The translations under genes and the position numbers were made by a program. Shown here one piece after another: positions 25,916-61,614 of a stretch of 64,000 nucleotides of DNA. Each line of letters opens with the position of its first letter. Position 1 is the first letter of the stretch. The DNA lies in the sequence record OP079919.1; one strand, 5' to 3'. The notes beneath the pieces are model-generated. The model made no database searches. It saw nothing but the letters and a program-made list of their open reading frames with translations, and was not told the DNA's origin. The DNA comes from Klebsiella phage KPN8.

Positions 25916-27820
25916 ATGAGAGAGCAACTAGCTGAACAAATCAGGTATCATAATAAACGTTATTTTTTAGATAACGATCCGGAAATATCCGACGATCAAT
26001 ACGACGAATTAAAACGGCAATACGACGCGTTGGGTGGTAATAAAAGTGCTTCCCCCATCTTGTTAGACATGGAGGGGAGTGCTCTGCACAAGGTAGGGTT
26101 AGACATCCCCATGCTATCTTTATCTAAGAAATTGAACTTATCGGAATACGAAGCCTGGGAATCCGATTACGAAGATAAGGATAAATATCATTCTTACAAA
26201 CTGGACGGTCTGGCGATTGAAGCCTGTTATGAGTTTGGCTTGTTAACTAAGCTCCGTACACGAGGAGATGGGTTAACTGGCGAAGATATCTTAGATAATG
26301 CCGGGGTCTTCTCACCAGATCAGCTCCCTTTAGAAAATCCAGCTTTAAAGGATTTCCACCGAGTTTGGTTACGAGGGGAAGGGTACGTCAGACTGGACGA
26401 TCTGGTTGTTATCAATGAGATCAACGCCAAGAGTTATCCCAATTGTCGTAGTGCGGCATCGGGTCTTATTCGTAGAAATCCAAAAGACAACGTGGATCTG
26501 GCAGGTAAGATCTCTTATAACGTTTATTGGTGTAGTGACCGTTTCGGTTTAGAGACTTACTCCGCCGTTATGGATAAACTCCGTGACTTCGGTTTCAGTA
26601 CTGCGCCGGAATGTCAGTATGAAGACATCGTCAATAATAACCGCCCTCCCCTTCTTCCTACCGACGGAATCGTTTCCGTTATTGATAGTTTTTCTGATCA
26701 AGACGAATTGGGTTCGACTAATGAATACCCTCGCTGGGGCGTTGCTTATAAGTTCCCTCCAGAGCAAGCGGAAACCATTGCTGAAAACGTTTCGTGGGAA
26801 ACGGGTAGAACCGGTCGGGTCACCCCTGTTCTCACCTATAAGGCGGTCACATTAGGTGGCAACACAAATACGGAATGTTCTTTGTTTAATTATCGTCACT
26901 TTATCAAAACGGGTGTGCGTAAAGGAAGCCGGATTATCATTGCTCGTAACGGTGACGTCATTCCTTATTTCGTTAAGGTTGTGGAAGCCGGATTAGGGGA
27001 TGAGTTTAAAACCCCTAAAGTCTGTCCGTCATGTTCGTCTATCCTGATGTATGAAGGGAAAGACGAGAAGAACATCTTCTTAACCTGTAAAAATACCGCG
27101 GATTGTCCAGCGCAGCATATCCAGAGATTCATTAATTTTGTCAGTCGTAAGGGATTGGATATCAAAGGTTACGGCGATAAGATGATGGAGAAGCACGTCG
27201 GGGAAGGGAAAGTCAGTACGCTTTCTGACATTCTTAACTTAGGAGAAATCCTTTCAGGGGAGGGTTTGGATAGGAATACGGAGAAAGTTATTGAGAAACT
27301 TAATAACTTAGGAAGTTACCCGGCGTATAAAGTGCTGGGGGCTTTAGGGATTCCTGGTGTCGCGGAAGGAACAGCTAAACTCATCACTGCTCGAGTCAGT
27401 AGCGTAGAAGATCTGATTGCTCTACTCAAGGACGTTAATCGTTTACTGGAGATTGAGGGCGTTGGGGTGAGTACCGTAAATGAGATCCAGTCGTTTTTAG
27501 GCAATCCCGTTCTCCTTACGGATACTGAAAACGTGCTGAATAAACTAACACTAACGTTTGAAAAAGGGCAAGAGCACGATATCAAAGTGTGTGTTACTGG
27601 CGGGTTGTCTATTCCACGCAGTGCAGCAGAAGAGTTGTTCAATCTTTCTGGGATTGAGTTACTGGACGGGGTAACTAAAAAGATGGATGTTCTCGTCTTC
27701 GCACCTGGAGGGAGTCAGGGTAAGAAAGATAAAGCTATCGCCATGAATAAAGTGGTTATAGAAGCAACCGACGTTCACACTGTAGAACAAATTATCGATC
27801 AAATATTAACAGCCATTTAG
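25916..27820 (+). CDS. ligA: NAD+-dependent DNA ligase
   Basis: LigA-type N-terminus (IRYHNKRYFLDNDPEISDDQYDEL). Adenylation motif KLDG. Cys4 zinc finger (CPSCSS...CKNTADC). HhH region and C-terminal BRCT-like domain. Confidence 0.9.
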   Translation: MREQLAEQIRYHNKRYFLDNDPEISDDQYDELKRQYDALGGNKSASPILLDMEGSALHKVGLDIPMLSLSKKLNLSEYEAWESDYEDKDKYHSYKLDGLAIEACYEFGLLTKLRTRGDGLTGEDILDNAGVFSPDQLPLENPALKDFHRVWLRGEGYVRLDDLVVINEINAKSYPNCRSAASGLIRRNPKDNVDLAGKISYNVYWCSDRFGLETYSAVMDKLRDFGFSTAPECQYEDIVNNNRPPLLPTDGIVSVIDSFSDQDELGSTNEYPRWGVAYKFPPEQAETIAENVSWETGRTGRVTPVLTYKAVTLGGNTNTECSLFNYRHFIKTGVRKGSRIIIARNGDVIPYFVKVVEAGLGDEFKTPKVCPSCSSILMYEGKDEKNIFLTCKNTADCPAQHIQRFINFVSRKGLDIKGYGDKMMEKHVGEGKVSTLSDILNLGEILSGEGLDRNTEKVIEKLNNLGSYPAYKVLGALGIPGVAEGTAKLITARVSSVEDLIALLKDVNRLLEIEGVGVSTVNEIQSFLGNPVLLTDTENVLNKLTLTFEKGQEHDIKVCVTGGLSIPRSAAEELFNLSGIELLDGVTKKMDVLVFAPGGSQGKKDKAIAMNKVVIEATDVHTVEQIIDQILTAI

Positions 27821-32938: not shown

Positions 32939-33817
32939 ATGAAAAAATTTAGGGCGGTCATCTCAGCTTCTCAGAGTAAAGAAAAATTAGAGCACAACGA
33001 AGATACTTGTTTGGTTGACTTAGGCGGAGTATCCGATCAACTTTTTAGTGAACGGTCTTTAGAGGCTTCTTTAGAGGCTTTAATTGAGAAAGGAGAGGTG
33101 GGGGAAATTATTACAGACCCCGTTTATTTCGATAACGAAGAATGTTTAAATAAACCCACTATCAGTTTCGAAACACTCTTTGCTTTCTTCACTGGAGGAT
33201 GGCAGTACGAACGCAAGGAAGGGTTTTATCACATTAGCGCCAAAATAAGATTCTTAAAGGAATATGAATCGCACTCTGAACTGGAGTTTATCCCCAGGGT
33301 GGTTTGTGACACGACTGGAAGACCAAAAATCGTTGCGTTTGATCTTAAACCAGGGGAATCTAAAATCGATCCATCAATTATTTCGGAGTGCAAAAATAAT
33401 TCCGCCGGATATGCTTTTGGCCGGACCGAGGTGAAGTCAGATTATTCAGTTATATTTATCTTGGGGTATTTCTGTAAAAAACGATGGAGTCGGGATGAGC
33501 TTATTAATGCGATGCGCTACCTTTGCGATAAAAAATCCGTTGGTGAGTTTGGCCGCCCTCCTACTGGAAGATCGAAAGAAAGATGGAGAAAAATTGATTT
33601 AGCTCTATCACTAGGATCCATTAAGGAGTTTCACATCGAAGATTATAGCGACGATGCGTTCGTTATTAAAGCGAAAATCGATTTTAATTTCCCTGTCGGG
33701 AAAGTCCCATGTTTTATTCGTCGGACACAATTCGTCTTCGCTCCTCGTGTCTCAGTATCGTCAGATTTCTATAAATATAATAGAACTCTTATTTGTTTCG
33801 ATCTCGTTCAGGTATAA
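32939..33817 (+). CDS. hypothetical protein
   Basis: 292-aa ORF. No motif recognised. Confidence 0.55.
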   Translation: MKKFRAVISASQSKEKLEHNEDTCLVDLGGVSDQLFSERSLEASLEALIEKGEVGEIITDPVYFDNEECLNKPTISFETLFAFFTGGWQYERKEGFYHISAKIRFLKEYESHSELEFIPRVVCDTTGRPKIVAFDLKPGESKIDPSIISECKNNSAGYAFGRTEVKSDYSVIFILGYFCKKRWSRDELINAMRYLCDKKSVGEFGRPPTGRSKERWRKIDLALSLGSIKEFHIEDYSDDAFVIKAKIDFNFPVGKVPCFIRRTQFVFAPRVSVSSDFYKYNRTLICFDLVQV

Positions 33818-33917
33818 CCTATGGCCAAGCATAAGCTTTCTGATTTCTTTGATATCGCTGCGCTGTTCCTTTGCGTGACAATAGTTTTGATCGTTTTCTT
33901 TTACGCTATTATTAAAT

Positions 33918-34268
33918 ATGGATAAAATTACTATGTTTGACCTTATTAAACTTCTCGAGATCTTCCTGGGATTCTTTATTTGTATCTTACTGATCGTTCT
34001 GCTCGTCATAACGACACGTAAGAATAAACGCCCCCAACTCCCTCCTACGCATGAAACCCTTCGGTACATCATCTCTGGCGCCCTACAGACGGGAGTTTAT
34101 AATACTCCCGATCTTTATGTCGAGCTCGCCTTAAAGCTCTCTAAGGACTACGGAGAGCTCTTAAACGTTAAAATAGAGTACGACCATTTATCGTCGTCTA
34201 GCCATAAAACGTTTTATATAAAGGATTATACACTTAAACGAGTTTACCCGCTAACCTTTAACGCATAA
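33918..34268 (+). CDS. membrane protein, hypothetical
   Basis: N-terminal TM helix FLGFFICILLIVLLVITT. Confidence 0.5.
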   Translation: MDKITMFDLIKLLEIFLGFFICILLIVLLVITTRKNKRPQLPPTHETLRYIISGALQTGVYNTPDLYVELALKLSKDYGELLNVKIEYDHLSSSSHKTFYIKDYTLKRVYPLTFNA

Positions 34269-34278
34269 AACGTTGATC

Positions 34279-34313
34279 TACTCCCTCTCCCTATTACGGG
34301 AGAGGGAGTACTC
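34279..34313 (+). terminator. weaker stem-loop at a gene end: 34279..34306
   Basis: Hairpin ctccctctccc-tattac-gggagagggag 3' of the stop codon. Confidence 0.35.
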
Positions 34314-34644
34314 TTATGAATTTATTTTTAGTTAATTAATGTTAAACCTAGGATATTATAGTATAATTAGCTCTAGCGCTATATATTAGGCCGAAGGCCT
34401 AAAGGGTTAGGGTAAGTCAATTCGTTCGTTTCAGCATCAATCAAGGTATTCGCTACGCTCATACTTTCTTATGCTTACACTCACCCATGCAACCTGGAGA
34501 GAAACCCCGACTGAACAAAGTTGTTTATTCCTTCTCAGGGGAATAAACAGTTCGTCGGCTAAAGACATAGGATGTTTTATGATCAGTAAAGAAATACGAT
34601 AATCTAAACTTATTAGTTCAAACACTGTAATCTAGGAGATAACC

Positions 34645-34761
34645 ATGAATATCATAATGCCATTAAAGCTACTCGGAGGGTTACTTATCCTGGGAGTGGG
34701 TTTTGGATTACTGGTTTATCTCATTGTTAAACTCTCCGTTAAAATGGCGTATAAAAAATGA
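34645..34761 (+). CDS. 38-aa hydrophobic micro-protein (not in the supplied ORF track)
   Basis: Perfect SD 'taggagataacc ATG'. Translation MNIIMPLKLLGGLLILGVGFGLLVYLIVKLSVKMAYKK is a single TM helix. Its stop overlaps the next start (ATGA). Confidence 0.35.
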   Translation: MNIIMPLKLLGGLLILGVGFGLLVYLIVKLSVKMAYKK

Positions 34762-35225
34762 GTGAAGAAGAGCTGTCATTAGGTTATATTTCGGTTAAAG
34801 TCATTCCCACTCAGGAAGGGATTCTTAAAGATAAGGTGTTGGATGCAGGCTGTCTTCCGTTAGATGAAGGGTCGTACCACGCTACGCTTATTTTTGATAT
34901 TCATCAGGATGGCGTCATTCCCAACGTACCTATGATTCCTGAAAAGATCTTCGAGGGAAAGGTTATCGGAATCAAGGAACTCGGAGAGCGTAAAGGAGAT
35001 ATTATCTCAGCCGTTGTACTCGAACTGGATTCTCCTGAACTGGCAGAAGAACACGATCGGTTAATACAATGTGGGTATGGTCATTCCTATCCGGATTACA
35101 TCCCCCATATTTCGCTCGCTTACAAGGTCACAGAAGAGCAAATGGAAGATCTCAAACGACAGTGTGAGTCGCTTATTGGTAAAACGTTCTACTTATCCGG
35201 AGAAAGCATCGACTGGATAGATTAA
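34758..35225 (+). CDS. 2H-phosphoesterase superfamily protein (Acb1-like anti-CBASS nuclease or LigT-like cyclic phosphodiesterase)
   Basis: Two H-x-T/S-x motifs ~76 residues apart (H41 ATLIF and H117 ISLAY) in a ~155-aa protein, which is the hallmark of the 2H fold. Size and spacing resemble phage Acb1 proteins. Confidence 0.45.
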   Translation: MSEEELSLGYISVKVIPTQEGILKDKVLDAGCLPLDEGSYHATLIFDIHQDGVIPNVPMIPEKIFEGKVIGIKELGERKGDIISAVVLELDSPELAEEHDRLIQCGYGHSYPDYIPHISLAYKVTEEQMEDLKRQCESLIGKTFYLSGESIDWID

Positions 35226-35238
35226 GAGGTAAAGGGGT

Positions 35239-35667
35239 ATGCCTGATAAACTTACTGTATCACTTTTTAAGCTTATAAAAAACCACACTGGGTTAACGTT
35301 AAAGGAAGGCGAATTCTCTTTAACGGGAGAAAGACCCTTTTGGTTCAGAATACCTCCTTTTCCCCTTAACCCTAGTTCAAGAGAGAGATTGAGAGATCTC
35401 TTTCAAGATAACTTTGATGTGACTGTAGTTGATTATGTTGACGATTACCAGATCATATTCAGCCAAATTGAACCAACAACTTCTCGTCGTATAAAACGCG
35501 TCAGGAACATCCTAGATGTGTTAGAAAGAGAGTACGGTAGAAACTGTCTCAGACCAGAAACCGGTAGAATCTTGAGCGGATATTACTCTACCCATAAAGA
35601 CAGAATAGAACAGGAAGAACTTGCTTATAATAAAAAGATTTTAAATGAAGCGTTACGAAGACGTTAA
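35239..35667 (+). CDS. hypothetical protein
   Basis: 142-aa ORF with a GAGGTAAAGGGGT SD-like leader. No motif recognised. Confidence 0.55.
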   Translation: MPDKLTVSLFKLIKNHTGLTLKEGEFSLTGERPFWFRIPPFPLNPSSRERLRDLFQDNFDVTVVDYVDDYQIIFSQIEPTTSRRIKRVRNILDVLEREYGRNCLRPETGRILSGYYSTHKDRIEQEELAYNKKILNEALRRR

Positions 35668-35708
35668 TCTTATGCAATATTTTTAATCTTAAAACGTGGG
35701 GTGGGTAA

Positions 35709-36029
35709 ATGACGTACAATGAAGTCGAGAAATATCTGGAAATGGGAGAGGCCGTCTCTAGGCGTAGTTGGAAAGCGAACGAAGCGGTTTATTTAGAGCC
35801 GACGACGTTACTTAATCCAGCGCACTATCCTGAGTGTTTAAAAGCCGCAGGTATTAACTCCCTTTTGAGAGTCGATCGACATTTAGTGCGTGTTACCGCG
35901 AGTAACACTGTTGAGCGTTTTATTCCCAACTTTGTAGAAAGAAACGAAAACGATTGGTACGTTAAAAGTTATACCTTCGAACAAAATAAAGCATTACCAG
36001 AACATAATCAAGCACAAGAAGTCGCATAA
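35709..36029 (+). CDS. DUF2829/Tad2-like small protein (candidate signalling-nucleotide sponge)
   Basis: N-terminus MTYNEVEKYLEMGEAVSRRSWKANEAVYLE fits the DUF2829 pattern M-x-F-x-EA-x(3)-L-x(2)-G-x(2)-V-x-R-x(2)-W ... Y-L as I recall it. About 100 aa. Confidence 0.35.
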   Translation: MTYNEVEKYLEMGEAVSRRSWKANEAVYLEPTTLLNPAHYPECLKAAGINSLLRVDRHLVRVTASNTVERFIPNFVERNENDWYVKSYTFEQNKALPEHNQAQEVA

Positions 36030-36034
36030 TAACA

Positions 36035-36045
36035 CCCCCCCCCCC
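36035..36045 (+). repeat. intergenic C11 homopolymer tract
   Basis: acaccccccccccctacac between the stop of the DUF2829-like gene and its terminator hairpin. Confidence 0.6.
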
Positions 36046-36059
36046 TACACTTAGATTTT

Positions 36060-36096
36060 AACCAGGAGAGGCGTAAGCCTCTCCTGGTTTATTTTA
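36060..36096 (+). terminator. intrinsic terminator
   Basis: aaccaggagaggc-gtaa-gcctctcctggtt, then tattttaca. Directly preceded by an 11-C homopolymer. Confidence 0.65.
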
Positions 36097-36163
36097 CATG
36101 TATTCTTTTTTGGATCGATATTATTTATGTGTAAACCTCAATAACTTTTTAGGAATCAACATC

Positions 36164-36379
36164 ATGAACGGTCTTTTTGGAACAGGTTGTTTGCTGTTAG
36201 GTGCTGCAGTGTATTTCTTCCTGAAGTACCTGGAACTGCGTAAAGATTTTAAAGAGAATAAGATTAAAGACAAGGGTCGGGCGTCTGGGTATAAAAATGC
36301 CTATTTCTCTTTAACCATTTGTGTTTTGGGTCTGGGTGTCTTTTTAATGGTTAATGGGACTCTGTTGGAGATCAGATAA
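36164..36379 (+). CDS. small membrane protein
   Basis: Start moved to MNGLFGTGCLLLGAAVYFFL. Two hydrophobic segments. Confidence 0.4.
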   Translation: MNGLFGTGCLLLGAAVYFFLKYLELRKDFKENKIKDKGRASGYKNAYFSLTICVLGLGVFLMVNGTLLEIR

Positions 36380-36846
36380 TGGATATCGTTATGCTGACCG
36401 ACGCAGAAACAGTTTTGGATGTCGTCGATGCAGAGGAATACTATCTTCCTACGGGAATTATGCGGCATTGGATACAGATGGCTATCCGAAGAGGGCCTGG
36501 GCATTGTAGGGCGTTTTGGTTTGAAGGCGGGATCTTTGTTTTGACCAAAATACCCTTAACAGGTAATAATACATGGAACGCTTCGATTTGGATTTCTGAA
36601 GATTACAGGCGAAAGGGACTGGCCAAGCGAATAACAGTTTTGGCTTTGGATATGTTCAGACTGGCTAACGCGACTCTACGTTTCCATCCTTGGGATCAGC
36701 GTAGCGTTGCATTCTTTTCTAATTTGGTTAACGAGGGATTGTTGACCGGGAAGAATTTTGGGGATATTGGGTCCAGACGTCTTTTATCGTCTGAACTCCT
36801 TAAAGATCCGGAAACCTTTACATCCCAGCGCGTTGAGCTGGTTTAA
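36379..36846 (+). CDS. GNAT-like acetyltransferase (tentative)
   Basis: YRRKGLAKRITVLALDMF resembles GNAT motif A. TAATG overlap with the upstream gene. Confidence 0.4.
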   Translation: MDIVMLTDAETVLDVVDAEEYYLPTGIMRHWIQMAIRRGPGHCRAFWFEGGIFVLTKIPLTGNNTWNASIWISEDYRRKGLAKRITVLALDMFRLANATLRFHPWDQRSVAFFSNLVNEGLLTGKNFGDIGSRRLLSSELLKDPETFTSQRVELV

Positions 36847-36870
36847 TCTTTCATAGTAAGAGGTAATAAA

Positions 36871-37251
36871 ATGGACCGTAACGAATTAGCGATTATTCTC
36901 ATCGATCAACTTAACAAATTCCTTTACCCTAAACTTGAGAAAACCAATATGACGAAATTTTGTCTATTGGGAACGCTGAGCCTTGAGGTCGTCACCGGTC
37001 AGTTTTATGATCATAAAACATGCGTGGGGTCGGAGGATATCCTTGCATTGCTCAAAGAGCACGGGATTAACGACGATGGATTCTTAAGCGTAGAAAAACG
37101 ACTATCGGCCTTTGGCGATATTCTGACTTCCTATTCTTATAGAGTTCTAGGGGATCGTTATGGTGATGCTTTTGTTACCGTGAATTTCAATTTGAATTTA
37201 ACTAATCTTAACATGCTTGAGTTCGCTAATGAACTCGCGCGCTACGAATAA
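36871..37251 (+). CDS. hypothetical protein
   Basis: 126-aa ORF. SD 'agaggtaataaa ATG'. Confidence 0.55.
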   Translation: MDRNELAIILIDQLNKFLYPKLEKTNMTKFCLLGTLSLEVVTGQFYDHKTCVGSEDILALLKEHGINDDGFLSVEKRLSAFGDILTSYSYRVLGDRYGDAFVTVNFNLNLTNLNMLEFANELARYE

Positions 37252-37296
37252 ATCATAATCCCGTCAATTTATTTTATACTTTTAGGAAACACCATC

Positions 37297-38052
37297 ATGA
37301 ACATCAATCAACTGCCAGAGAATCATCACGTCATTTCTTCTATGGTCAATCCGTTTGACCCTAACGAAGAATTGTTCTTCGTTACCCATCCTCGTGTAAA
37401 TACTTACCTGGATCTTGATGTTTGGTTCTGCGATATGGGTACTGGAGACATGAGGGTAATCGAGTCTTACAGTAAAGTATCCGACGTTCGGCTGCTTGGT
37501 TATATGGAAGGGCACGTTGCTAACAATCCGGATCAATTTCTTTACCCCACAGTTATTACCCCTCTTAGCCTGCGAGAGACTGAGATGGTCGTAGATGGCG
37601 TTCTCGGCGCTTTCAATCCTTCACCTCTTGAAAGAGCTAACGCCAGTAAATCTCTTCATCACCCTTCGCCAGAGGAAATATCCGATGGGGCATTTAAGGA
37701 GTACGAAGCGAGGAAAGCGGCTTTGAAAGAACTGCTGGAAAGCGGAGGTGAGATTAAACCAATTCCGAAAACGGTTTACTACACTAAAGAGTTTTCTGAT
37801 GCTTTAGAGGGCGTCCGCGCTGAACAGAGAGAGGCGACTGACCAACAAAGTTCCAAAATCCCCACTGAGTCTAGCGTAACCGTGACTGACCTTGGTGACG
37901 GATTTTCACGGATAGAAAAAGTAATCGGGGGAAGAACCTTGGTAAGTTACGATGAAAAGGCTCACATTCCTTTTCCAAGAAAGCGTAAGCCCAAGAAACC
38001 CAACCATAATCTTAACGCGATCATGGGTTTGTTAGCGAGGGCCAAGAAGTGA
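37297..38052 (+). CDS. hypothetical protein
   Basis: 251-aa ORF preceded by a TTTAGGAAA box. Basic C-terminus. Confidence 0.55.
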   Translation: MNINQLPENHHVISSMVNPFDPNEELFFVTHPRVNTYLDLDVWFCDMGTGDMRVIESYSKVSDVRLLGYMEGHVANNPDQFLYPTVITPLSLRETEMVVDGVLGAFNPSPLERANASKSLHHPSPEEISDGAFKEYEARKAALKELLESGGEIKPIPKTVYYTKEFSDALEGVRAEQREATDQQSSKIPTESSVTVTDLGDGFSRIEKVIGGRTLVSYDEKAHIPFPRKRKPKKPNHNLNAIMGLLARAKK

Positions 38053-40195: not shown

Positions 40196-42076
40196 ATGAC
40201 CACACCAACTCAACTACCGATACCCAGTAGCAATTTGCTGGATTCGAGATTTAACTTTGAGAAGTTAGACCAGATAGTAAACTCAGATGCCGATTTCTAT
40301 TTGGACCGTTTTGGCAAACAACGTCTTACCGTTTTGGGCGCCACCAATCAGCTCATCCAAAGCCTGAAAGATCAAACTGGTGCCAACAATGTAACCTACG
40401 TCAAATCCAAGGTGGATAAAGTACTGTCATCGATAGGGTATTCCCTTGACGTCATTCCAATGAATATCTTTGACAAGGCTTATTTGTGTTCGGGAACTGA
40501 CAACCCAGATCCTAATACTTGGATCTGGACCGCCGCCCTGCAGGGCGTTTTATCGGATATCGCTTCTTATAAGCTTTTTACCCTCAACGGAAATGACTAT
40601 TATACAACTTTCTCCCTACGAATACCTGGAGGGGTTTATCAGATCGACGATCTGGTTAGTTTGGGTAAGGTAGCAGGGACTGGAGGAGGAGCATCCTTTA
40701 GGACCAACATCGTTATCAACGGAGATGGAAAAAGCAGTTCGGTTCTTCGTCTTATAGGTGATGATAAACAATTGTTTAAATTCACAGAAAGCCGTTTAGT
40801 CATGAGGGATATAGGGCTTCAAACTAACGGGGCTCGTAACATAGGGATGGAATTAGGCGATCAAAATAATTGGGTCCCGATGGCCCACTCCCATCTTGAC
40901 AATGTTTCGATTACCGGATTTTGTCGCGGATTGCTAATAAGCCATTGCTTTGACAGCACGTTCGATTCTTTATTCATATCCGAGATAGCCGATACGGGTA
41001 ATGCGGTTATACCCGCTACCGGTATTGAAATTGCGCAGTTTTTAGGAAAAGATTCCTCTAACAATCCAGATAACTCTAACCAACTGACGTTTATTAACTG
41101 TGTAGTTGAGACGGCTAGGACCGATAACGCTATTTTGTTTTACGTCAACGGAATTAGTAAAAGTTATCCCCACCACGCCATCAACTTCTTAGGTGGGCAC
41201 CTGGAAACCCATAGACGGAACACGGTCTGTTATAAATTTAACAACATGGCCCTGTCAACCTTCACAGGAGTGACATTCAGTCAGAACGGCACTGATTCTA
41301 CTAACCCTGTAAACGTTGGGGTAATAACTGACTCCTGGAATATTATCTTTAATGGCGGAAGAACAGTAACCAATAATGCTAAAAACACTTACGATGATAC
41401 TTGGGATAAATTGATAACCGTAGCGGGATCTAGCATGGGGATCACGTACATGAATCATCATTTTATTACCCCATACCAGACGTATTCTTCGTATAACCGT
41501 AATGCCAACACCGTGTTCAATTTTACCGGGGCGACCGCGGGAATAAACGCCATCGATGCCGATCGCTGTAGATTGAACGACTTCACGTTCAAGCCGTTCA
41601 CCAAATCTATAGAAATAACCAGAATGGATTTGATTACTCAGCGTTTCAGGATATCCGTAAACACTTCTGGTAGTCTGGTTTTCGCGTACTCTAATGATGT
41701 TACTGGCGCCGCCGCTATGACGGATTTGGTAACCATCACCAATACAGGGAATGCGACTTTTCTTGGGTCCGTTACGGCAACTAACGTAACCGGGACGTCC
41801 GATGAGAGGTTAAAAACAGAAATAGGAGAAGTTGATCAAGTTTTAATTGATGTTGTTAAAAGTCTACGGCCTAAGAAGTATCGACTGAAAAACGACCCCC
41901 AAAACAAAATTAGAGTGGGATTCATCGCCCAAGACCTAATAGAACTTATGGATAAAGCTGGATTGGATTTCAAGAAATACAGTATTATCGCAGAGTTTAA
42001 TATTCCTGGGGATGATTCAGAAAACACGTATTATTCCTTGGACTATGATGAAATAATGTTGTTAAGATCCTTGTAG
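40196..42076 (+). CDS. tailspike/depolymerase-like protein 1 with C-terminal S74 intramolecular chaperone domain
   Basis: Conserved N-terminal module MTTPTQLPIPSSNLLDSRFNFEKLDQIVNSDADFYLDRFGKQRLT. Beta-helix body. C-terminus TGTSDERLKTEIGEVDQ ... GFIAQDL matches the S74 self-cleaving chaperone signature (S-D-x-R-x-K). Confidence 0.8.
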   Translation: MTTPTQLPIPSSNLLDSRFNFEKLDQIVNSDADFYLDRFGKQRLTVLGATNQLIQSLKDQTGANNVTYVKSKVDKVLSSIGYSLDVIPMNIFDKAYLCSGTDNPDPNTWIWTAALQGVLSDIASYKLFTLNGNDYYTTFSLRIPGGVYQIDDLVSLGKVAGTGGGASFRTNIVINGDGKSSSVLRLIGDDKQLFKFTESRLVMRDIGLQTNGARNIGMELGDQNNWVPMAHSHLDNVSITGFCRGLLISHCFDSTFDSLFISEIADTGNAVIPATGIEIAQFLGKDSSNNPDNSNQLTFINCVVETARTDNAILFYVNGISKSYPHHAINFLGGHLETHRRNTVCYKFNNMALSTFTGVTFSQNGTDSTNPVNVGVITDSWNIIFNGGRTVTNNAKNTYDDTWDKLITVAGSSMGITYMNHHFITPYQTYSSYNRNANTVFNFTGATAGINAIDADRCRLNDFTFKPFTKSIEITRMDLITQRFRISVNTSGSLVFAYSNDVTGAAAMTDLVTITNTGNATFLGSVTATNVTGTSDERLKTEIGEVDQVLIDVVKSLRPKKYRLKNDPQNKIRVGFIAQDLIELMDKAGLDFKKYSIIAEFNIPGDDSENTYYSLDYDEIMLLRSL

Positions 42077-42160
42077 TTTGGGAAATTGGGGGCGTATTTT
42101 TAACTAACGTACCATAACGTCCCCCCCCCACTCCAATTTAGTCAAACAAAGGGTGTTATG
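42077..42160 (+). promoter_or_regulatory. conserved tailspike leader element, copy A (imperfect inverted repeat, C9 tract, AGTCAAACAAAGGGTGTT ATGATGAC)
   Basis: Homologous to 54481..54577 at the nucleotide level: ggaa(a)ttggggg..tttttaac(t/c)aac(g/t)taccat..c(a)ccccaatt(t/c)agtcaaa(c/t)aaagggt. Confidence 0.35.
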
Positions 42161-44299
42161 ATGACGACTCCAACTAAGAACGACATTCCAAGCAATAATT
42201 TGTTGGATGCTCGTTTTAACTTTGAAAAGCTCGATCAGATTGTTAATAGCGACGCGAACTATTACCTTGATCGATTTGGTAAACAACGACTCACTTCGGC
42301 CGGATTGGAAGATTTAGCCAGACGATTATCTGAAGATTATGAATCCACCCTATCTAATCAGGATGGGTATAAGAAAATGGGGATGGTGTCTGATTTTACT
42401 ACTCTCAGAACTATCGCCCCAACAATGGAAGGTCAACGCATTCTGCTCAGGTCGGTTGACGCTGGTTCGAATAATGGATCGGGAGAGTTTATAGGACATT
42501 TAGGGAGCAATGGGGTTGACGACGGGGTTAATGTCGCGGTGGGATCCAACTTCTATTGGGAGAGGCTTTCGACTGATTTTGTTAAATCTTCTTCTATAGG
42601 TGATTACACTCGGATTAACTCCTTTATTTCAGCCGGAAATAAGAAGATCACTGTCGATGCCGATCTCAGCGGGTGGCTTAACGTCAAAAGTAACACCACG
42701 ATAACTTTTAACCCATTGTGTCGGCTGATACCTGATACCGATGACAAAGTCGGCATAAGTATTAGAGGAGCCGCCCCAACCTCCTATGTTAATCTAGCTA
42801 CTGATGCATTAGGGATAGATGGCTCAATTACCACCACTAATGACGTTTTTAACATTGGTGATTGGCTGGAAATTAGATCCAACAAGGTTCTTCCCGGCGC
42901 GAATTTTTATCAGGTTAAGCAATCTGTTTTACGCAAAGTGCTTCGTAAAACACAAAATGGAAATGGAACTTGGACATACCGTCTCCACAGTAGTTTAGGT
43001 TATAACTTTAACGTCAGCGACGGTGCTTCCGCTGGGGTTGCGACAGTATTGGAAAATATTGTTATCGATGGGGCTAACTTAAATAAAGACAATTTCACCA
43101 ATATCTTCACCATAGGGATAAACTGTTATTACGTTTATAACCTCACTATAAAAAATATCAACCTATTCGGAACAAAAGTAAAGGATTCTGCCTCAGACAC
43201 TCCAGGAAGATCCGGAATAAAACTGTATAATTGCGTTAACGTTAGAATCGATAATGTGAACGCCTCTTATATAGGGTGGTATGGTGTAGAGGTTATGGGA
43301 TGCAGTGAAAACGTAGATGTAAATCGTTTATACGGTGTGGATTGTCGACATACCGTTTCCATGAACTGGATCGAATCTGGCGACCTTTATGGTGGGCCTA
43401 TGTGGGTTTCGGTAAGGAACTCAGCAAGTCACGCTGCAAGATTAAGTGGGTTTGACACTCATGATCTAGGAAAGGGGATCGCATTTATTAATTGCCAGAG
43501 TTTCGATTCTGGTGATGATGGATTCCAAGTAAGGGCGATGGACACCGTTCTAATCGATTGCCATGCTGAAGGATCGACACTTGATGGCTTCGGCGGCGCT
43601 ACTGGCGCAAAGAACAGCAAATTAGTAAACTGTTCTTTCAACTACAACGTCAGATACGGAATTAATTTAGGTTATGAAGGCGGTATTGTTATCGACTGTG
43701 ACGTCGATAATAACGGTTACATGGGGATTTGTACCATCGGCGGACTCATTCAAGGAGGGTCGGTCACCAATAATTATCCGGCTGCTATCGATATAGGCGC
43801 CGGATTTAATGCCGCCCAAACCGATCTCAAAATCGATGGTGTTAGAATGCCCTCTTCGACCGCCCAGACAAAAATTTTGAGTTTTGCTGGTGACGCGGTA
43901 GCCGCTAACAACAAACCTGAGTTGGTTAGAATGGAAAATTGTTACGTTCCTGGTTACGGAAGAGATTGGGTCAGACTGGTATCGTTCACCGTCCAACCTT
44001 TACCCCCGGTGCTTAATAATAATCTACTTACTTCCAGCTTAACCTCCCCTGGAAAAATAAGCGGGCAAGTCCAATTATCTGCAGGGACAGCCACGGTGAC
44101 AACCACAGAGGTTTTCTCACAACTTGGTAGCGGTGCAAATGTTTTAAAATACTCATCGCAGATTAAGTTGAAACCTATCGCTCGTTCTGCCAATATAGGC
44201 GCTCATTATGTTTCAGCAATCAACAACGGGACGTCCTTTGTAATCAATTCAACCAATTCCTCGGATGGCTCGACCATTTATTGGGAAATAACACTTTAA
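42161..44299 (+). CDS. tailspike/depolymerase-like protein 2
   Basis: N-terminal ~45 aa nearly identical to protein 1 (MTTPTKNDIPSNNLLDARFNFEKLDQIVNSDANYYLDRFGKQRLT). Beta-helix segments (NCVNVRIDNVNASYIGWYGVEV, IDCHAEGSTLDGFGG). A second ATG lies at 42158. Confidence 0.8.
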   Translation: MTTPTKNDIPSNNLLDARFNFEKLDQIVNSDANYYLDRFGKQRLTSAGLEDLARRLSEDYESTLSNQDGYKKMGMVSDFTTLRTIAPTMEGQRILLRSVDAGSNNGSGEFIGHLGSNGVDDGVNVAVGSNFYWERLSTDFVKSSSIGDYTRINSFISAGNKKITVDADLSGWLNVKSNTTITFNPLCRLIPDTDDKVGISIRGAAPTSYVNLATDALGIDGSITTTNDVFNIGDWLEIRSNKVLPGANFYQVKQSVLRKVLRKTQNGNGTWTYRLHSSLGYNFNVSDGASAGVATVLENIVIDGANLNKDNFTNIFTIGINCYYVYNLTIKNINLFGTKVKDSASDTPGRSGIKLYNCVNVRIDNVNASYIGWYGVEVMGCSENVDVNRLYGVDCRHTVSMNWIESGDLYGGPMWVSVRNSASHAARLSGFDTHDLGKGIAFINCQSFDSGDDGFQVRAMDTVLIDCHAEGSTLDGFGGATGAKNSKLVNCSFNYNVRYGINLGYEGGIVIDCDVDNNGYMGICTIGGLIQGGSVTNNYPAAIDIGAGFNAAQTDLKIDGVRMPSSTAQTKILSFAGDAVAANNKPELVRMENCYVPGYGRDWVRLVSFTVQPLPPVLNNNLLTSSLTSPGKISGQVQLSAGTATVTTTEVFSQLGSGANVLKYSSQIKLKPIARSANIGAHYVSAINNGTSFVINSTNSSDGSTIYWEITL

Positions 44300-56378: not shown

Positions 56379-57152
56379 ATGCATAATCGTAGTGTTAAGC
56401 GTGCTAACCGCGACGCTCGTCGCGAAGCAAGACGTCAAGATAAGTCCCAAAGTAGCCAACTGAAACTGGTGGACAGCAATTTCAGTGAAGTAAATCTACC
56501 TCTTGCAAAAGCTGATCGGAGTAAGATTGAGCCGAAAAACCCAATGCAGCAAAAATATTGGGATGGGTTACATGCCCACGATGTTGTCATCGGTATAGGG
56601 GAAGCGGGTAGCGGTAAAACGTTCCTCCCAACTTGTTATGCCGCGGAACGTCTGATGGCTAAAGACGTGGAAAAGATCATCGTTACACGGCCAGTTTTAC
56701 AGGCCGATGAAGATCTGGGTTTTCTCCCCGGGGATGTTAATGAGAAATTCGCACCTTACTTCCGACCGGTCTACGATATCTTACTGAAACGCCTGGGTGG
56801 TGGAATGCTCAACTATTGCATGAAGCCTGGCGTGGAGAAAGTTGAAGTCGCCCCCTTTGCTTTTATGAGAGGTCGTACTTTTTCTGACTCAGTAGTGATT
56901 CTTGACGAAGCGCAAAACGTTACAGTCATGCAGATGAAAATGTTCATCACTCGTATGGGTGAGAACACTACGGTAATCATCAACGGCGACCTTACCCAGT
57001 GCGATCTTCCTAAAGGAGTTAAATCCGGTCTGGAAGATCTGCTGGAACGCATCGAACGAGATCCTGAAAATGGATTCCCGGTTTATCGTTTCAACGCCGC
57101 TGATAGTGTGCGGTCAGATATTTGCTCCAAAGCCCTGAAGCTTTACAAATAA
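56379..57152 (+). CDS. phoH: PhoH-like ATPase
   Basis: P-loop GIGEAGSGKTFL. VILDEAQN Walker B. Overall PhoH architecture and size. Confidence 0.85.
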   Translation: MHNRSVKRANRDARREARRQDKSQSSQLKLVDSNFSEVNLPLAKADRSKIEPKNPMQQKYWDGLHAHDVVIGIGEAGSGKTFLPTCYAAERLMAKDVEKIIVTRPVLQADEDLGFLPGDVNEKFAPYFRPVYDILLKRLGGGMLNYCMKPGVEKVEVAPFAFMRGRTFSDSVVILDEAQNVTVMQMKMFITRMGENTTVIINGDLTQCDLPKGVKSGLEDLLERIERDPENGFPVYRFNAADSVRSDICSKALKLYK

Positions 57153-57242: not shown

Positions 57243-57710
57243 ATGAACCTCATGTACGATAATTACTACGGAAAAGAAATAATTGGATTGGGTTTAGAGG
57301 GAGAAGTCATCACAATGTTAAATTTGGCGATGACTGACATTAATCACTTCGCTAAGAAAAGTATCGCTAAAGACATCAACCCCTATCCGTTCAATCTGGA
57401 AGATTTTAAACACAACCGTTTAAACGAACACTACTTCCTCGTTTTTGATGGGAAGAAAATAGCGTCGATTCTATCCGTCGTTTACGCTTTAGAGCATCAT
57501 CTCAAAATAGCTAAAATCTTTAACGTTTATACGTTACCGGAGTATCGCCATAAAGGGCTTGCTAAACGCAACCTAATCGCCGCTATCGTGTCGGCAAGAT
57601 CAAATGGGTACATTGTGCAGTTAAACGTTTACAGGTCTAATAAAGCCGCTCAGAGGCTTTACAAGAGCCTTAAATTTAAACCCGTCGAATACACTATGCA
57701 GCTCGGTTAA
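57243..57710 (+). CDS. GNAT family N-acetyltransferase
   Basis: YRHKGLAKRNLIAAIVSARSNGYIVQLNVYRSNKAAQRLYKSLKF matches GNAT motifs A/B. Confidence 0.65.
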   Translation: MNLMYDNYYGKEIIGLGLEGEVITMLNLAMTDINHFAKKSIAKDINPYPFNLEDFKHNRLNEHYFLVFDGKKIASILSVVYALEHHLKIAKIFNVYTLPEYRHKGLAKRNLIAAIVSARSNGYIVQLNVYRSNKAAQRLYKSLKFKPVEYTMQLG

Positions 57711-58654: not shown

Positions 58655-61225
58655 TTAACTTACATAAATGGAAGTTAACGATAACTGAGAGAATATCCCT
58701 GAAATGTACGCCTGAACGCCTCGTGTCCCTACGGTGTAGCGATCAATAAAACTATTCATTTGGGTCGAACTAGTTCCTGAATAGTCAGTCCCTGAAACCG
58801 ACACGGAGGTTGTTCCCGATAGAGTATTGACTGAACTGGTAATATTAGTGGCGATGGATCTCGCCAAAATACCACTTCCGGGATAGTCAATTTTAAAAAC
58901 ATCAAAAAAGGTATTACCGGATTGCAAATGGGTGGCCTGCAGACAATTTCCTTTGGCCACATACAAAGCGCCGGACCAACTGCTATTATTTACTCCGGTA
59001 TTCCAGATCATCAGAGAAGAAATTGGTGTACCTGAGTTATTATAATAGGAGCAGTCACTTAACCGGAACCATTGGGCTAAATTCAAATTAGATGATGTGA
59101 CCGAACTTAACGAGTAGTCGCCGGAAAAACTTACCCCTGACGCTTTCAGTCTGTGAAGGAACGCCGAATCGGCGGTCGTTAAAGGCAAATTAGTCCCTGA
59201 TTTGACACTCCCTCCCCTCATGTTAATTTCTACACGTTGATTGGCTTCCTGGGTGCCGTCGTTGGTAATGAACCTTGATAACTCACAGTCGTTGAAATTA
59301 TAGGACCCCCTTTGTGAGATTCTCACTAGGGTGGGGGTGCCGTTGTAATTGGGGTTGTGTAATCTCCTAGCGTCGAGCCTGATATTGTGTTGAAATCCGT
59401 AAGATGGACGTTTGATAATTAAATTATCCACCCCTACGTTGTTCATACTGACTTTCATGTCGATAGGTTCGAACATAGTGTCGGTCGATGCAGAAGTATT
59501 GCTTGCCCTGGGCTTCGTGTTGGTGAAATCAATTTTTAACGTCCCGCCGGCGGCGTAGGTAACGTTGTCAAATCGAATATTCATAGGAGGAGTAACCGTT
59601 CCGTCGCGGTTTATCCAATAAATATTTTGAAGGCAACTAGAAGCTTCCGGAGTCTCAATAGTCAAGCCATCAATATCTATTTTATTAAATAGCTCACCGG
59701 CCATCTGAGACCCAGTAGGTAAAGAAGTGTAATTATCGGCGGCTCCCTGTACAATGGACCCTTCTCCATTGGACGCTAAACTGTAATATTTCCAAAATCC
59801 TCTGACCCTGACGTTACGCATAATCAGCGTCCCATCGGTGATTCCTCCGGAAGTAGTCCTGGCCTGCACAAGTGAAGGGAAAAGAAATTTTCCGTAGTAA
59901 GGGTCTCCGGATCCTCTCCCCAGTTCGTATACTGTGTCAAGTATCTCGAGAGTTGAGTTTTTAGTACCTAAGAAAACAGCAGCTCCGTCACCAATCTTGC
60001 AGTTTACAAGTTTGTAATATCCGATGCTTGGGTTATGGCTATCGAAGTTGTTGGCCGAGCAATTATCAAAAATGGTATCGGCTATCCAACCGGCCGCGGA
60101 TATCGACCCCCATCCGTAGCCAAACGCGTTTACGTTTCTTACGTATAACTTCGCCCCCCACCCATGGTGGAGTGTGTAAGATGCATAAGTGGTCGTTTGA
60201 TCCGAGGAAGAAAAGGAAGCGGTTGGGTGAGCGTCGTAGATGAAATCCACGTAGGTGTTGTAGTAATACTGAATGTCGATAACGTGACGTGATCCTATTT
60301 CCGTAATCGGTTTATTGAGTATTCTCCCCTCTTTTATGATCAAGTTGGACACATAAAAGAACTGGAAGAATATAGGTCTAGGCCCATAACGATAGTCGAC
60401 GTCCGGCATAATAAATTCACTGAAACCAGCCTGGATAGGTAGCGCCGATATGCTAGTAATCGACGTCCCGTTGTAAGGGAAGACGTTATCCATTTTGCCG
60501 TTAGCACTTATCCTGGTTACGTGAGCGAGTTTCTGAGTTTTTGCGCCAGCTTGGGTTTGTGTGCTATTATAAACATATAGGTCGTCTGAAAAATTCATAA
60601 TGACCATGCTGTCGTTTAAAGTCGTGTCCGATCCCAACGAATCTAAACAACCGTTTCCGCTTAAGAAGTCTGTGGAGGCATTAGTATTTAACTTAGTTAC
60701 CACGGAAGATCCGGAGGCATGGTTAACTAATCCGCTCGATTGAGAGATCCAGAAAGTCCCGGTAAAATCAGCCGCCGGAATAATTTTCATTCCCCCTAAA
60801 TCGGTCTTCTTATTATCGATGATCCAGTTAAACTTGGCGTTACCGGAAATCAAGTACTCACCAGATTTTTGTTTTATAGGAATGCCCGTCAATGTCGACA
60901 ATTGAATAAGGGCTAAAAGTTTGTCGGTGACGTCAACATCCCCCGTGTTCTCTATACCAAACATGTCACAGGAAAGAAATGTTTGAAGGTTAGAGACTTT
61001 ACCTCCATAAGGAAGATTTATAATTGACGACCCGTCCCCTCCGGTTAAAACATTCAGGGTTTCCTGGACGGCCGCCGCTACCCCCTTAGCGGTCAATCTC
61101 TGGTTACCAAAACGATCAGTATAGGTATTCTCATCGGAATTAATGATCTCATCTAACTTTTCGGCATTAAATCTAACATCTATAGCGGTGCTACTGGGTA
61201 TACCATTTTGTGTTGGAGTCGTCAT
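58655..61225 (-). CDS. tailspike/depolymerase-like protein 9 (inverted orientation)
   Basis: MTTPTQNGIPSSTAIDVRFNAEKLDEIINSDENTYTDRFGNQRLT N-terminal module. 856 aa. The only minus-strand member. Confidence 0.8.
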   Translation of the reverse strand: MTTPTQNGIPSSTAIDVRFNAEKLDEIINSDENTYTDRFGNQRLTAKGVAAAVQETLNVLTGGDGSSIINLPYGGKVSNLQTFLSCDMFGIENTGDVDVTDKLLALIQLSTLTGIPIKQKSGEYLISGNAKFNWIIDNKKTDLGGMKIIPAADFTGTFWISQSSGLVNHASGSSVVTKLNTNASTDFLSGNGCLDSLGSDTTLNDSMVIMNFSDDLYVYNSTQTQAGAKTQKLAHVTRISANGKMDNVFPYNGTSITSISALPIQAGFSEFIMPDVDYRYGPRPIFFQFFYVSNLIIKEGRILNKPITEIGSRHVIDIQYYYNTYVDFIYDAHPTASFSSSDQTTTYASYTLHHGWGAKLYVRNVNAFGYGWGSISAAGWIADTIFDNCSANNFDSHNPSIGYYKLVNCKIGDGAAVFLGTKNSTLEILDTVYELGRGSGDPYYGKFLFPSLVQARTTSGGITDGTLIMRNVRVRGFWKYYSLASNGEGSIVQGAADNYTSLPTGSQMAGELFNKIDIDGLTIETPEASSCLQNIYWINRDGTVTPPMNIRFDNVTYAAGGTLKIDFTNTKPRASNTSASTDTMFEPIDMKVSMNNVGVDNLIIKRPSYGFQHNIRLDARRLHNPNYNGTPTLVRISQRGSYNFNDCELSRFITNDGTQEANQRVEINMRGGSVKSGTNLPLTTADSAFLHRLKASGVSFSGDYSLSSVTSSNLNLAQWFRLSDCSYYNNSGTPISSLMIWNTGVNNSSWSGALYVAKGNCLQATHLQSGNTFFDVFKIDYPGSGILARSIATNITSSVNTLSGTTSVSVSGTDYSGTSSTQMNSFIDRYTVGTRGVQAYISGIFSQLSLTSIYVS

Positions 61226-61338: not shown

Positions 61339-61614
61339 ATGAAATTTACTTCTGCTGTTGCAAAACTCAAACCCGGTTACGGGATTCAGTGCACCGATTG
61401 GAATGGTGCTAATCAATTTGTTTTTGATGCCTCTTTGACCATGTCTCTCGTTGAAGCACGCAAACAGGGATTCCCGGGCCCGGTTAAACTGAAGCCGGTT
61501 TACGTGTTGCATAACGCTAAAGGTGAGCTGCAACCTGGTTGGGTGCCGTCCCAGGGCGATCTTCGCAACGAGAACTGGATCGTTGTCAAAATCAAAGACG
61601 CGTTGGCGAAATGA
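61339..61614 (+). CDS. small hypothetical protein (weak DUF2829-like pattern)
   Basis: MKFTSAVAKLKPGYGIQCTDWNGANQFVF loosely fits A..LK.G.......W-N-G. 91 aa. Confidence 0.3.
   Translation: MKFTSAVAKLKPGYGIQCTDWNGANQFVFDASLTMSLVEARKQGFPGPVKLKPVYVLHNAKGELQPGWVPSQGDLRNENWIVVKIKDALAK

Follow-up and report, generated by a model that had tools for sequence, protein, structure and literature searches.

A terminator-bounded operon of Klebsiella phage KPN8, with an Acb1-family phosphodiesterase gene and a divergent DUF2829/Tad2-like gene, probably directed against nucleotide-signalling immunity

Introduction

Klebsiella phage KPN8 (record OP079919.1) is a Miamivirus-type Klebsiella jumbo phage, and such phages have genomes of about 252 kb. 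The 64,000-nucleotide stretch of its DNA analysed here, referred to as the window, contains a four-gene accessory operon bounded by terminators, for which the best-supported role, and a probable one on a reading of the sequence, is counter-defence against immunity that acts through nucleotide signalling. The second gene of this operon (open reading frame 1, ORF1) is strongly supported as encoding a member of the Acb1 family of 2H phosphodiesterases, with an activity predicted by homology, while the product of the fourth (ORF3, which matches KPN8_62 of Klebsiella phage KPN8 at 100% identity) is a remote member of the DUF2829/Tad2 family, a relationship that appears real at the domain level. Between them lies an orphan gene (ORF2), and ahead of them a gene for a short hydrophobic peptide. 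Any mechanism beyond family membership is one that we infer.

The initial annotation of this DNA had described a candidate anti-defence island made up of an Acb1-like enzyme and a Tad2-like sponge, with one uncharacterised gene between the two. The three ORFs that it listed are present on the + strand with the lengths given below, together with the other features on which the argument depends.

34280..34309, + strand: upstream hairpin terminator with a perfect 12-13 bp stem, ACTCCCTCTCCC/GGGAGAGGGAGT
34645..34761, + strand: gene for a 38-amino-acid (aa) hydrophobic peptide, from reading of the sequence, with an AGGAGA ribosome-binding site upstream
34758..35225, + strand: ORF1, 155 aa, Acb1-family 2H phosphodiesterase (PF23474, phrog_755 and PDB matches)
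35239..35667, + strand: ORF2, 142 aa, orphan located between the two family-assigned genes
35709..36029, + strand: ORF3, 106 aa, divergent DUF2829/Tad2-like protein (PF11195, phrog_1048, hhalign)
36060..36089, + strand: strong intrinsic terminator at the 3' end of the unit, with a 13-bp stem containing 8 GC pairs and then a T-run, TTTATTTT
61339..61614, + strand: canonical Tad2/DUF2829 gene, 91 aa (PF11195, phrog_1048 and our own Tad2 hidden Markov model, HMM)

The transcription unit

The hairpin at 34280-34309 (folding dG -26.4 kcal/mol, z -5.9) closes the preceding gene, 33918-34268, and sets the 5' edge of the unit, whose 3' end is formed by the hairpin at 36060-36089 (folding dG -26.8 kcal/mol, z -7.5). 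Terminators are annotated in the record of phage Miami at sites homologous to both. The genes for the 38-aa peptide, ORF1, ORF2 and ORF3 sit between these two hairpins, each with a ribosome-binding site ahead of it, and ORF1 and ORF3 are separated by 484 bp. No promoter is named, since a scan for sigma-70 sites returned 10 of them against 8.2 in shuffled sequences and therefore no enrichment; an Rfam scan of 33800-36400 gave no match near the gathering score.

The region 33900-37300 shares 97.0% nucleotide identity with phage phiKp_32 and 95.2% with phage Miami. The ORF1-ORF2-ORF3 trio is kept in six phage genomes plus metagenome contigs, and the gene order is stable across the clade, including contigs at a synonymous divergence (dS) of 0.6-0.9. 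Word-index searches for homologues returned close relatives only (2, 4 and 4 clusters). Comparison with related phages and metagenome contigs indicates purifying selection on all four genes, with ratios of non-synonymous to synonymous substitution (dN/dS) of 0.04-0.05 for ORF1, 0.05-0.09 for ORF2, 0.07-0.09 for the 38-aa peptide (at dS 0.16-0.66) and 0.17-0.24 for ORF3.

A homopolymer of 11 C residues at 36035-36045, after the stop codon of ORF3 and ahead of the terminator hairpin, could be a tract prone to slippage or to sequencing error.

ORF1, an Acb1-family 2H phosphodiesterase

The initial annotation had read ORF1 as a 2H phosphoesterase from two H-x-T/S motifs, and as Acb1-like from its size and their spacing. 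The motifs are indeed located at HAT from residue 41 and HIS from residue 117, and both catalytic histidines (H41 and H117) align with those of the Acb1 structures. Two H-x-[TS] motifs in 155 aa are weak evidence alone, with about 0.6 estimated to occur by chance in a protein with five His residues, and the significance of the ORF1 call, as of the ORF3 call, is due to profile matches. ORF1 matches the Pfam family PF23474 (Acb1) with an E value of 6.4e-13 and 49.1 bits, the cut-off being 27, and matches phrog_755 over its full length (E 1.5e-24, 87 bits), a PHROG labelled 'RNA ligase' that also takes the crystallised FBB1 Acb1 (198.8 bits) and KVP40 57B (166.2 bits). When ORF1 was compared with the PDB by phmmer, the significant matches were to Acb1 entries only, 7t26 (E 6.6e-5; with it 7t27) and 9q2g (E 1.9e-4), with both H-x-T/S motifs aligned. 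Relatives of ORF1 were detected by tblastn in 270 phage records. The PF23474 call would be within reach of any current Pfam scan, and it is already listed in what had been pre-computed for the homologous cluster.

The catalytic mechanism of this family has been described for Acb1, in which an HxT/HxT tetrad (H44/T46 and H113/T115 in T4 numbering) carries out a metal-independent acid-base cleavage 3' of adenosine via a cyclic-phosphate intermediate, Y12, W74, F107 and W147 stack on the bases, and a C-terminal lid shuts over the ligand (Hobbs et al., PMC9117128). The tetrad H41-x-T43/H117-x-S119 of ORF1 aligns with H44/T46 and H114/T116 of FBB1 Acb1. ORF1 was aligned with FBB1 Acb1, KVP40 57B, the homologues of USC-1, EL, OBP and N1M2, and a metagenomic protein of 59% identity. 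Four residues do not vary in this alignment (H41, T43, H117 and G9), the two histidines and the first Thr being invariant across eight homologues, and the position of Y10 is always aromatic. Y10 aligns with FBB1 Y12 and Y111 with FBB1 Y108, and the C-terminus of ORF1 (...ESIDWID) resembles the FBB1 lid (...DLEWSDKD); Y10, Y111 and W153 are found at or near the equivalents of stacking aromatics.

ORF1 and the Acb1 enzymes (T4 57B; FBB1, 7T26/7T27; PF23474) are alike in being single-domain proteins of about 150 aa with a catalytic HxT/HxS tetrad, an N-terminal stacking Tyr, an 'S/D-Y-P-D-Y-x-P-H-[IV]-[ST]-L' block and a putative C-terminal Trp lid, and in belonging to the same PHROG and Pfam family. 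Unlike those enzymes, ORF1 has a second motif of the HxS type instead of HxT, shares only 26-27% identity with FBB1 Acb1 and KVP40 57B, and groups in a jumbo-phage subclade (Vibrio USC-1, Pseudomonas EL and OBP, Klebsiella N1M2) with Gly in place of W/F74. The other structure matched, 2H PDE-9 (9Q2G/9Q2Y), is aligned with ORF1 at E 1.9e-4 over a span that includes both catalytic motifs, and has been placed in structural group 3 together with T4 Acb1 (10.1101/2025.08.21.671373); PDE-9 differs in its length of 165 aa and in its N-terminal lid, whereas ORF1 has the Acb1-type C-terminal ...DWID end.

In the GenBank record of phage Miami, the homologous gene (CPT_Miami_080, L001 6937-7326) is labelled 'RNA ligase' and encodes 129 aa from a start placed 26 codons late, which would remove the conserved G9-Y10 of an Acb1-family protein. 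The 'RNA ligase' label is a legacy of the T4 57B/phrog_755 annotation.

ORF3, a divergent DUF2829/Tad2-like protein

ORF3 begins MTYNEVEKYLEMGEAVSRRSWKANEAVYLE, the start from which the initial annotation had proposed a Tad2-type sponge of Thoeris or CBASS (an antiphage signalling system based on cyclic oligonucleotides) signals. The domain part of this proposal stands. ORF3 matches PF11195 (Tad2-like) at E 8.5e-7 and 29.9 bits (cut-off 25) over profile positions 1-72 of 73, and phrog_1048 at E 3.6e-6 over profile positions 110-197, the region that corresponds to the match of the canonical copy described below. An hhalign comparison with a canonical Tad2 profile, built from 76 sequences of IMG/VR loci, gave a probability of 72% (E 3.4e-5, 85 collinear columns), the controls being 0.7% for the ORF2 alignment and 0.15% for the ORF1 alignment. 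MAFFT and hhalign agree in placing ORF3 end to end in collinearity with the solved Tad2 sequences HgmTad2 (8kbi), SptTad2 (8wjd) and MoTad2 (9eib), which were retrieved from the PDB with a consensus-style DUF2829 sequence that served only as a probe.

Several features are common to ORF3 and the Tad2/DUF2829 sponges (SPO1 Gp34.65, 8SME; HgmTad2/AcrIIA7, 8KBI; SptTad2, 8WJD; MoTad2, 9EIB): an N-terminal helix with G-x-x-V-x-R-x-x-W followed by a variable insertion, and a C-terminal '[WF]-x-P-[SN]-x-x-[DE]-x(4)-D-W' block. ORF3 also keeps W21, the P31-equivalent, D82-W83 and the order of secondary structures. It has, in addition, a C-terminal tail of about 20 aa, a feature that the solved Tad2 proteins lack.

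The divergence of ORF3 is considerable. It has no BLAST-level similarity to any other phage DUF2829 protein, the canonical copy of the same genome included: BLAST-type and phmmer searches gave no link to any other DUF2829 protein, direct sequence and profile searches of the PDB with ORF3 returned no Tad2 entry, and a scan of IMG/VR with the ORF3 alignment gave no match. By tblastn, ORF3 was found in six records only, all of them Miamivirus-type. The AlphaFold2 model of ORF3, obtained from an alignment of five near-identical sequences, is unusable (predicted local distance difference test, pLDDT, 50.9; predicted template-modelling score, pTM, 0.39).

The canonical Tad2 gene at 61339-61614

The window carries a second DUF2829 gene, not part of the finding of the initial annotation, at 61339-61614. 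When all ORFs of the window were scanned with our own Tad2 HMM, this gene was the top match (E 2.9e-12) and ORF3 the second. It scores 52.7 bits with PF11195 and 54.3 bits with phrog_1048, and keeps both W21-N22-G23 and GW-V-P-S-Q-G-D...NW (the W-x-P-S-x-x-D pocket motif). Its homologues are found by tblastn in 111 phage records, among them KVP40, where Acb1/57B lies about 22 kb from the DUF2829 gene. That the two DUF2829 genes arose by a recent duplication was considered and ruled out, as BLASTP shows no similarity between them. An orthodox Tad2 is thus present already in the phage, which leaves ORF3 as a specialised paralogue for another ligand or else as a protein of DUF2829 fold with another job.

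The neighbours of the canonical gene are a tail-fibre-like gene on the - strand (58655-61225), a multi-transmembrane ORF and a QueC/PAPS-reductase-like gene (61989-62912).

ORF2 and the 38-aa peptide

ORF2 is a clade-restricted, strongly constrained orphan. It has no Pfam or NCBIfam match and at most a weak PHROG match, and a profile search of the PDB gave no match. When 1.84 billion representatives were searched exhaustively with HMMER, only the cluster of ORF2 itself was recovered, plus two spurious matches to repeat proteins. Its AlphaFold2 model, from an alignment of five near-identical sequences, is unusable (pLDDT 50.5). ORF2 may be regarded as an anti-defence candidate by association only.

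The peptide encoded at 34645-34761 (MNIIMPLKLLGGLLILGVGFGLLVYLIVKLSVKMAYKK) has the appearance of a single transmembrane segment and is annotated as CPT_Miami_079 in Miami; a PHROG search gave no match. Its TGA stop codon overlaps the ATG of ORF1 (ATGA), which suggests translational coupling of the peptide to ORF1.

Proposed mechanism

By homology, the U-shaped pocket of the Acb1-like enzyme would take up a cyclic di- or trinucleotide, and the C-terminal Trp-containing lid would shut over it. The H41-x-T43/H117-x-S119 tetrad would then cut the 3'-5' phosphodiester by metal-independent acid-base catalysis, with a 2',3'-cyclic phosphate as intermediate, and a CBASS-type signal would in this way be linearised, its effector never being activated. 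ORF3 would most probably be a small oligomeric ligand-binding 'sponge' with a remodelled pocket, and if it sequesters an immune signal, this is likely to be another one than that of the canonical Tad2 (61339-61614). ORF2 and the membrane peptide of 38 aa would be co-expressed passengers or partners.

A bolder proposal, which we regard as quite unlikely, is that the operon is a dedicated multi-signal cassette in which ORF3 sequesters a nucleotide handled by neither the canonical Tad2 nor Acb1, and ORF2 is a new anti-defence protein. In such a cassette, the ligand of ORF3 could be an Acb1-resistant signal (cGG, 3'2'-cGAMP), or a product or decoy that matters in Panoptes-type surveillance of Acb1 activity.

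Evidence weighing against a counter-defence role and alternative explanations

A number of observations on the enzyme, on the DUF2829 protein and on their adjacency weigh against the counter-defence role. As regards the enzyme, the Acb1 stacking position W/F74 is occupied by Gly76 in ORF1 and in all the jumbo-phage homologues, so that this Gly76 subclade may differ in substrate range. For the adenine-specific E141 of Acb1 the candidate in ORF1 is E149, whose placement in the gapped C-terminus is unsure. In addition, viral 2H phosphodiesterases with intact histidines have been reported to have broad, narrow or no detectable substrates, with specificity set by the enzyme core (Doherty et al., 10.1101/2025.08.21.671373). 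Finally, Acb1 homologues lie directly downstream of RNase HI in a metagenomic relative (L003 5953-6967), in Vibrio USC-1 (L007 2074-3471) and in Pseudomonas EL (L008 983-3414); in phage EL, a DHH/DHHA1 phosphoesterase (ORF125) is found between RNase HI and the Acb1 homologue. This neighbourhood could reflect a role in nucleic-acid metabolism instead. It could be either an ancestral synteny or a functional link, and it looks as if the RNase HI-Acb1 order were ancestral and the Miamivirus lineage had inserted HslU and small accessory genes.

The absence of one stacking aromatic (G76) and the position next to RNase HI, with a DHH/DHHA1 phosphoesterase nearby in EL, would suit a different function for ORF1, that of a housekeeping LigT/ThpR-like 2',3'-cyclic phosphodiesterase that processes RNA or nucleotide ends in nucleic-acid metabolism and has unrelated neighbours. 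ORF1 is, moreover, called 'RNA ligase' in databases and weakly matches PF13563 (2_5_RNA_ligase2) with 20.3 bits. However, this match is below the 27-bit cut-off and restricted to residues 85-136, against the 49.1 bits of the Acb1 profile; the label is a legacy of the T4 57B name, in a PHROG, phrog_755, that holds the validated Acb1 (PMC9117128); and the best PDB matches of ORF1 are Acb1 entries, whereas the cellular cyclic phosphodiesterase 1fsi appears at an E value of about 1. The initial annotation had itself contemplated an RNA-repair enzyme of this kind, working with a nearby phosphatase of the HAD family and a ligase. A ligase is present, at 25916-27820, 7 kb off, but it is an NAD-dependent DNA ligase and not an RNA ligase, which leaves the RNA-repair alternative weak, and the HAD phosphatase was not borne out, as no HAD domain was detected by Pfam in the 38 neighbouring ORFs scanned. 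No RNA ligase or polynucleotide kinase domain was detected among them either, and an RNA-repair module was rejected on these grounds. A housekeeping function for ORF1 on its own is, in our judgement, very unlikely.

As regards ORF3, the points at issue are its ligand-binding residues. It has been reported that HgmTad2 contacts its ligand through W21/N22/G23 and W87/L88/S90/T92/D93, that the mutants W21A/N22A and S90A/T92A/D93A lose binding of glycocyclic ADP-ribose (gcADPR), and that the site for gcADPR shows high conservation, predicted non-binders making up only about 1% of Tad2 proteins (Li et al., 10.1101/2023.11.15.567273). The MAFFT alignment gives the following correspondence between HgmTad2 and ORF3.

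HgmTad2 to ORF3, first contact block and start of the second: W21 to W21, N22 to K22, G23 to A23, W87 to F71
HgmTad2 to ORF3, remainder of the second block: L88 to I72, S90 to N74, T92 to V76, D93 to E77

Thus, of the residues W21/N22/G23/W87/S90/T92/D93 that form the conserved pocket for derivatives of ADP-ribose, only W21 is identical in ORF3. In contrast to the solved Tad2 proteins, WNG has become WKA and W87/S90/T92/D93 have become F/N/V/E, while W-N-G, W, S and D are kept in all three solved homologues aligned. ORF3 would fall in the non-binding minority of about 1%. The cyclic-dinucleotide site has changed as well, R31, S47, F70 and N85 of HgmTad2 corresponding to E30, H39, V55 and R70 in ORF3; this site is also missing from SPO1 Tad2 and hence does not define the family (10.1101/2023.11.15.567273). 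Two further results bear on ORF3. With the narrow canonical Tad2 HMM, ORF3 scores a non-significant 6.8 bits, a value that is not evidence against family membership because the HMM was built from loci chosen by GWNGKG and DxLAxDW patterns and is biased to canonical members. A Foldseek search of the PDB with the low-confidence ORF3 model gave noise, with no match at an E value below 0.1.

These substitutions open the way to an explanation in which ORF3 has the DUF2829 fold without a sponge role, acting as an inhibitor that is anti-CRISPR-like or otherwise binds proteins, or as an accessory protein with a structural or regulatory part, and the canonical copy elsewhere in the window provides the Tad2 function. 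The higher dN/dS of ORF3 and its extra C-terminal tail would be in line with this, as would the fact that the first isolation of a DUF2829 protein was that of the anti-CRISPR AcrIIA7. Against it, the family hallmarks listed above are retained (W21, the P31-equivalent, D82-W83 and the order of secondary structures), several of the changes are between similar residues (W to F, D to E, S to N), and ORF3 is still under purifying selection and co-transcribed with the Acb1 enzyme. Furthermore, Tad2 homologues re-tune one scaffold to different ligands, and the family is plastic, with members that block CBASS, Pycsar and Thoeris types I, II and IV (bioRxiv 10.1101/2025.08.24.671296). An ORF3 without a sponge role, lost or never possessed, is considered somewhat unlikely. 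The specific Thoeris/CBASS sponge role of the initial proposal is not supported, with a pocket mostly replaced and a canonical Tad2 25 kb away.

The third question is whether the two genes belong together. According to the AntiDefenseFinder survey (PMC11724313), whose definition was followed here, two or more genes of known anti-defence families within 1-10 kb of each other in an accessory region of a mobile element constitute an anti-defence island, and this is what is found at the KPN8 locus, by family-level assignments. Like the islands of that survey, the locus has two genes of known families no more than 1 kb apart in a variable accessory region, an arrangement in which 17.8% of the known anti-defence systems of phages occur (at 1 kb or less from another). 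It differs from the surveyed islands in that its assignments are made at the level of families, and in that the pairing of Acb1 with DUF2829 was present in none of the 86 other loci examined. At 80 canonical Tad2 loci, no Acb1 was found in the 5 kb to either side, and neither a DUF2829 gene nor a relative of ORF2 was found beside the Acb1 homologues of FBB1, KVP40, USC-1, EL, OBP and N1M2. The Acb1/DUF2829 adjacency is thus specific to the Miamivirus-type clade.

It might be supposed, accordingly, that three unrelated accessory genes have come to lie by coincidence in one transcription unit of a single phage lineage. The lack of the pairing at those 80 Tad2 and six Acb1 loci fits such a coincidence, and most known anti-defence genes, about two thirds, stand on their own (PMC11724313). 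The chance of a DUF2829 gene occurring within two gene positions of Acb1 is about 3%, a rough estimate that considers two DUF2829 genes among about 290 genes, and a value that is low and not negligible. On the other hand, the unit is bounded by terminators, its gene order is conserved throughout the clade even at dS 0.6-0.9, and both family assignments share one functional theme. Coincidental adjacency is held to be unlikely, and the compact counter-defence module put forward by the initial annotation is a plausible reading of the locus.

Significance

Both protein families and the idea of anti-defence islands have been described already, and the locus neither changes current concepts nor provides a new mechanism; what is new is one more cluster of anti-defence genes, carried by a jumbo phage. 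It is moderately interesting in that an Acb1 is co-transcribed with a DUF2829 paralogue whose pocket is remodelled and with an orphan under constraint. On the practical side, the GenBank names 'RNA ligase' and 'hypothetical protein' can be corrected, and Miamivirus-type Klebsiella jumbo phages, a group that attracts interest in phage therapy, are seen to carry an Acb1-family signal nuclease together with two Tad2-family genes. The divergent and canonical DUF2829 copies of one genome offer a natural pair for the study of ligand-specificity change on the Tad2 scaffold, and the co-transcribed orphan ORF2 is a cheap guilt-by-association candidate for a new anti-defence function.

Genomic surroundings

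In phage phiKp_32, a 1.39-kb IS200/IS605-type TnpB element (L002 3581-4972) is inserted into the non-coding leader that directly precedes the operon, at a point corresponding to window position 34474/34475; the element is not in the window or in phage Miami. The preceding gene, 33918-34268 (+ strand), encodes a 116-aa protein with a transmembrane segment and has 81% amino-acid identity to its Miami counterpart, with a dS of 0.73, while the flanking genes are at 98-99%. This divergence suggests recombination, with a breakpoint at the operon's 5' edge.

Just after the operon, a GNAT-type acetyltransferase gene (36379-36846, + strand) is weakly recognised by Pfam, at 21.6 bits; a clear GNAT gene is found at 57243-57710 (+ strand), beside PhoH at 56379-57152. 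Between 40196 and 56311 (+ strand) there is an array of large tail-fibre/depolymerase-like genes, including a Peptidase_S74 chaperone domain (40196-42076) and a K1-lyase-like capsule depolymerase (42158-44299), which is consistent with a Klebsiella host range of multiple capsule types. Lastly, the record named 'Stenotrophomonas phage BUCTxx100' (OR529409.1) has 93.5% nucleotide identity to these Klebsiella phages across the region, its host assignment being unexpected.

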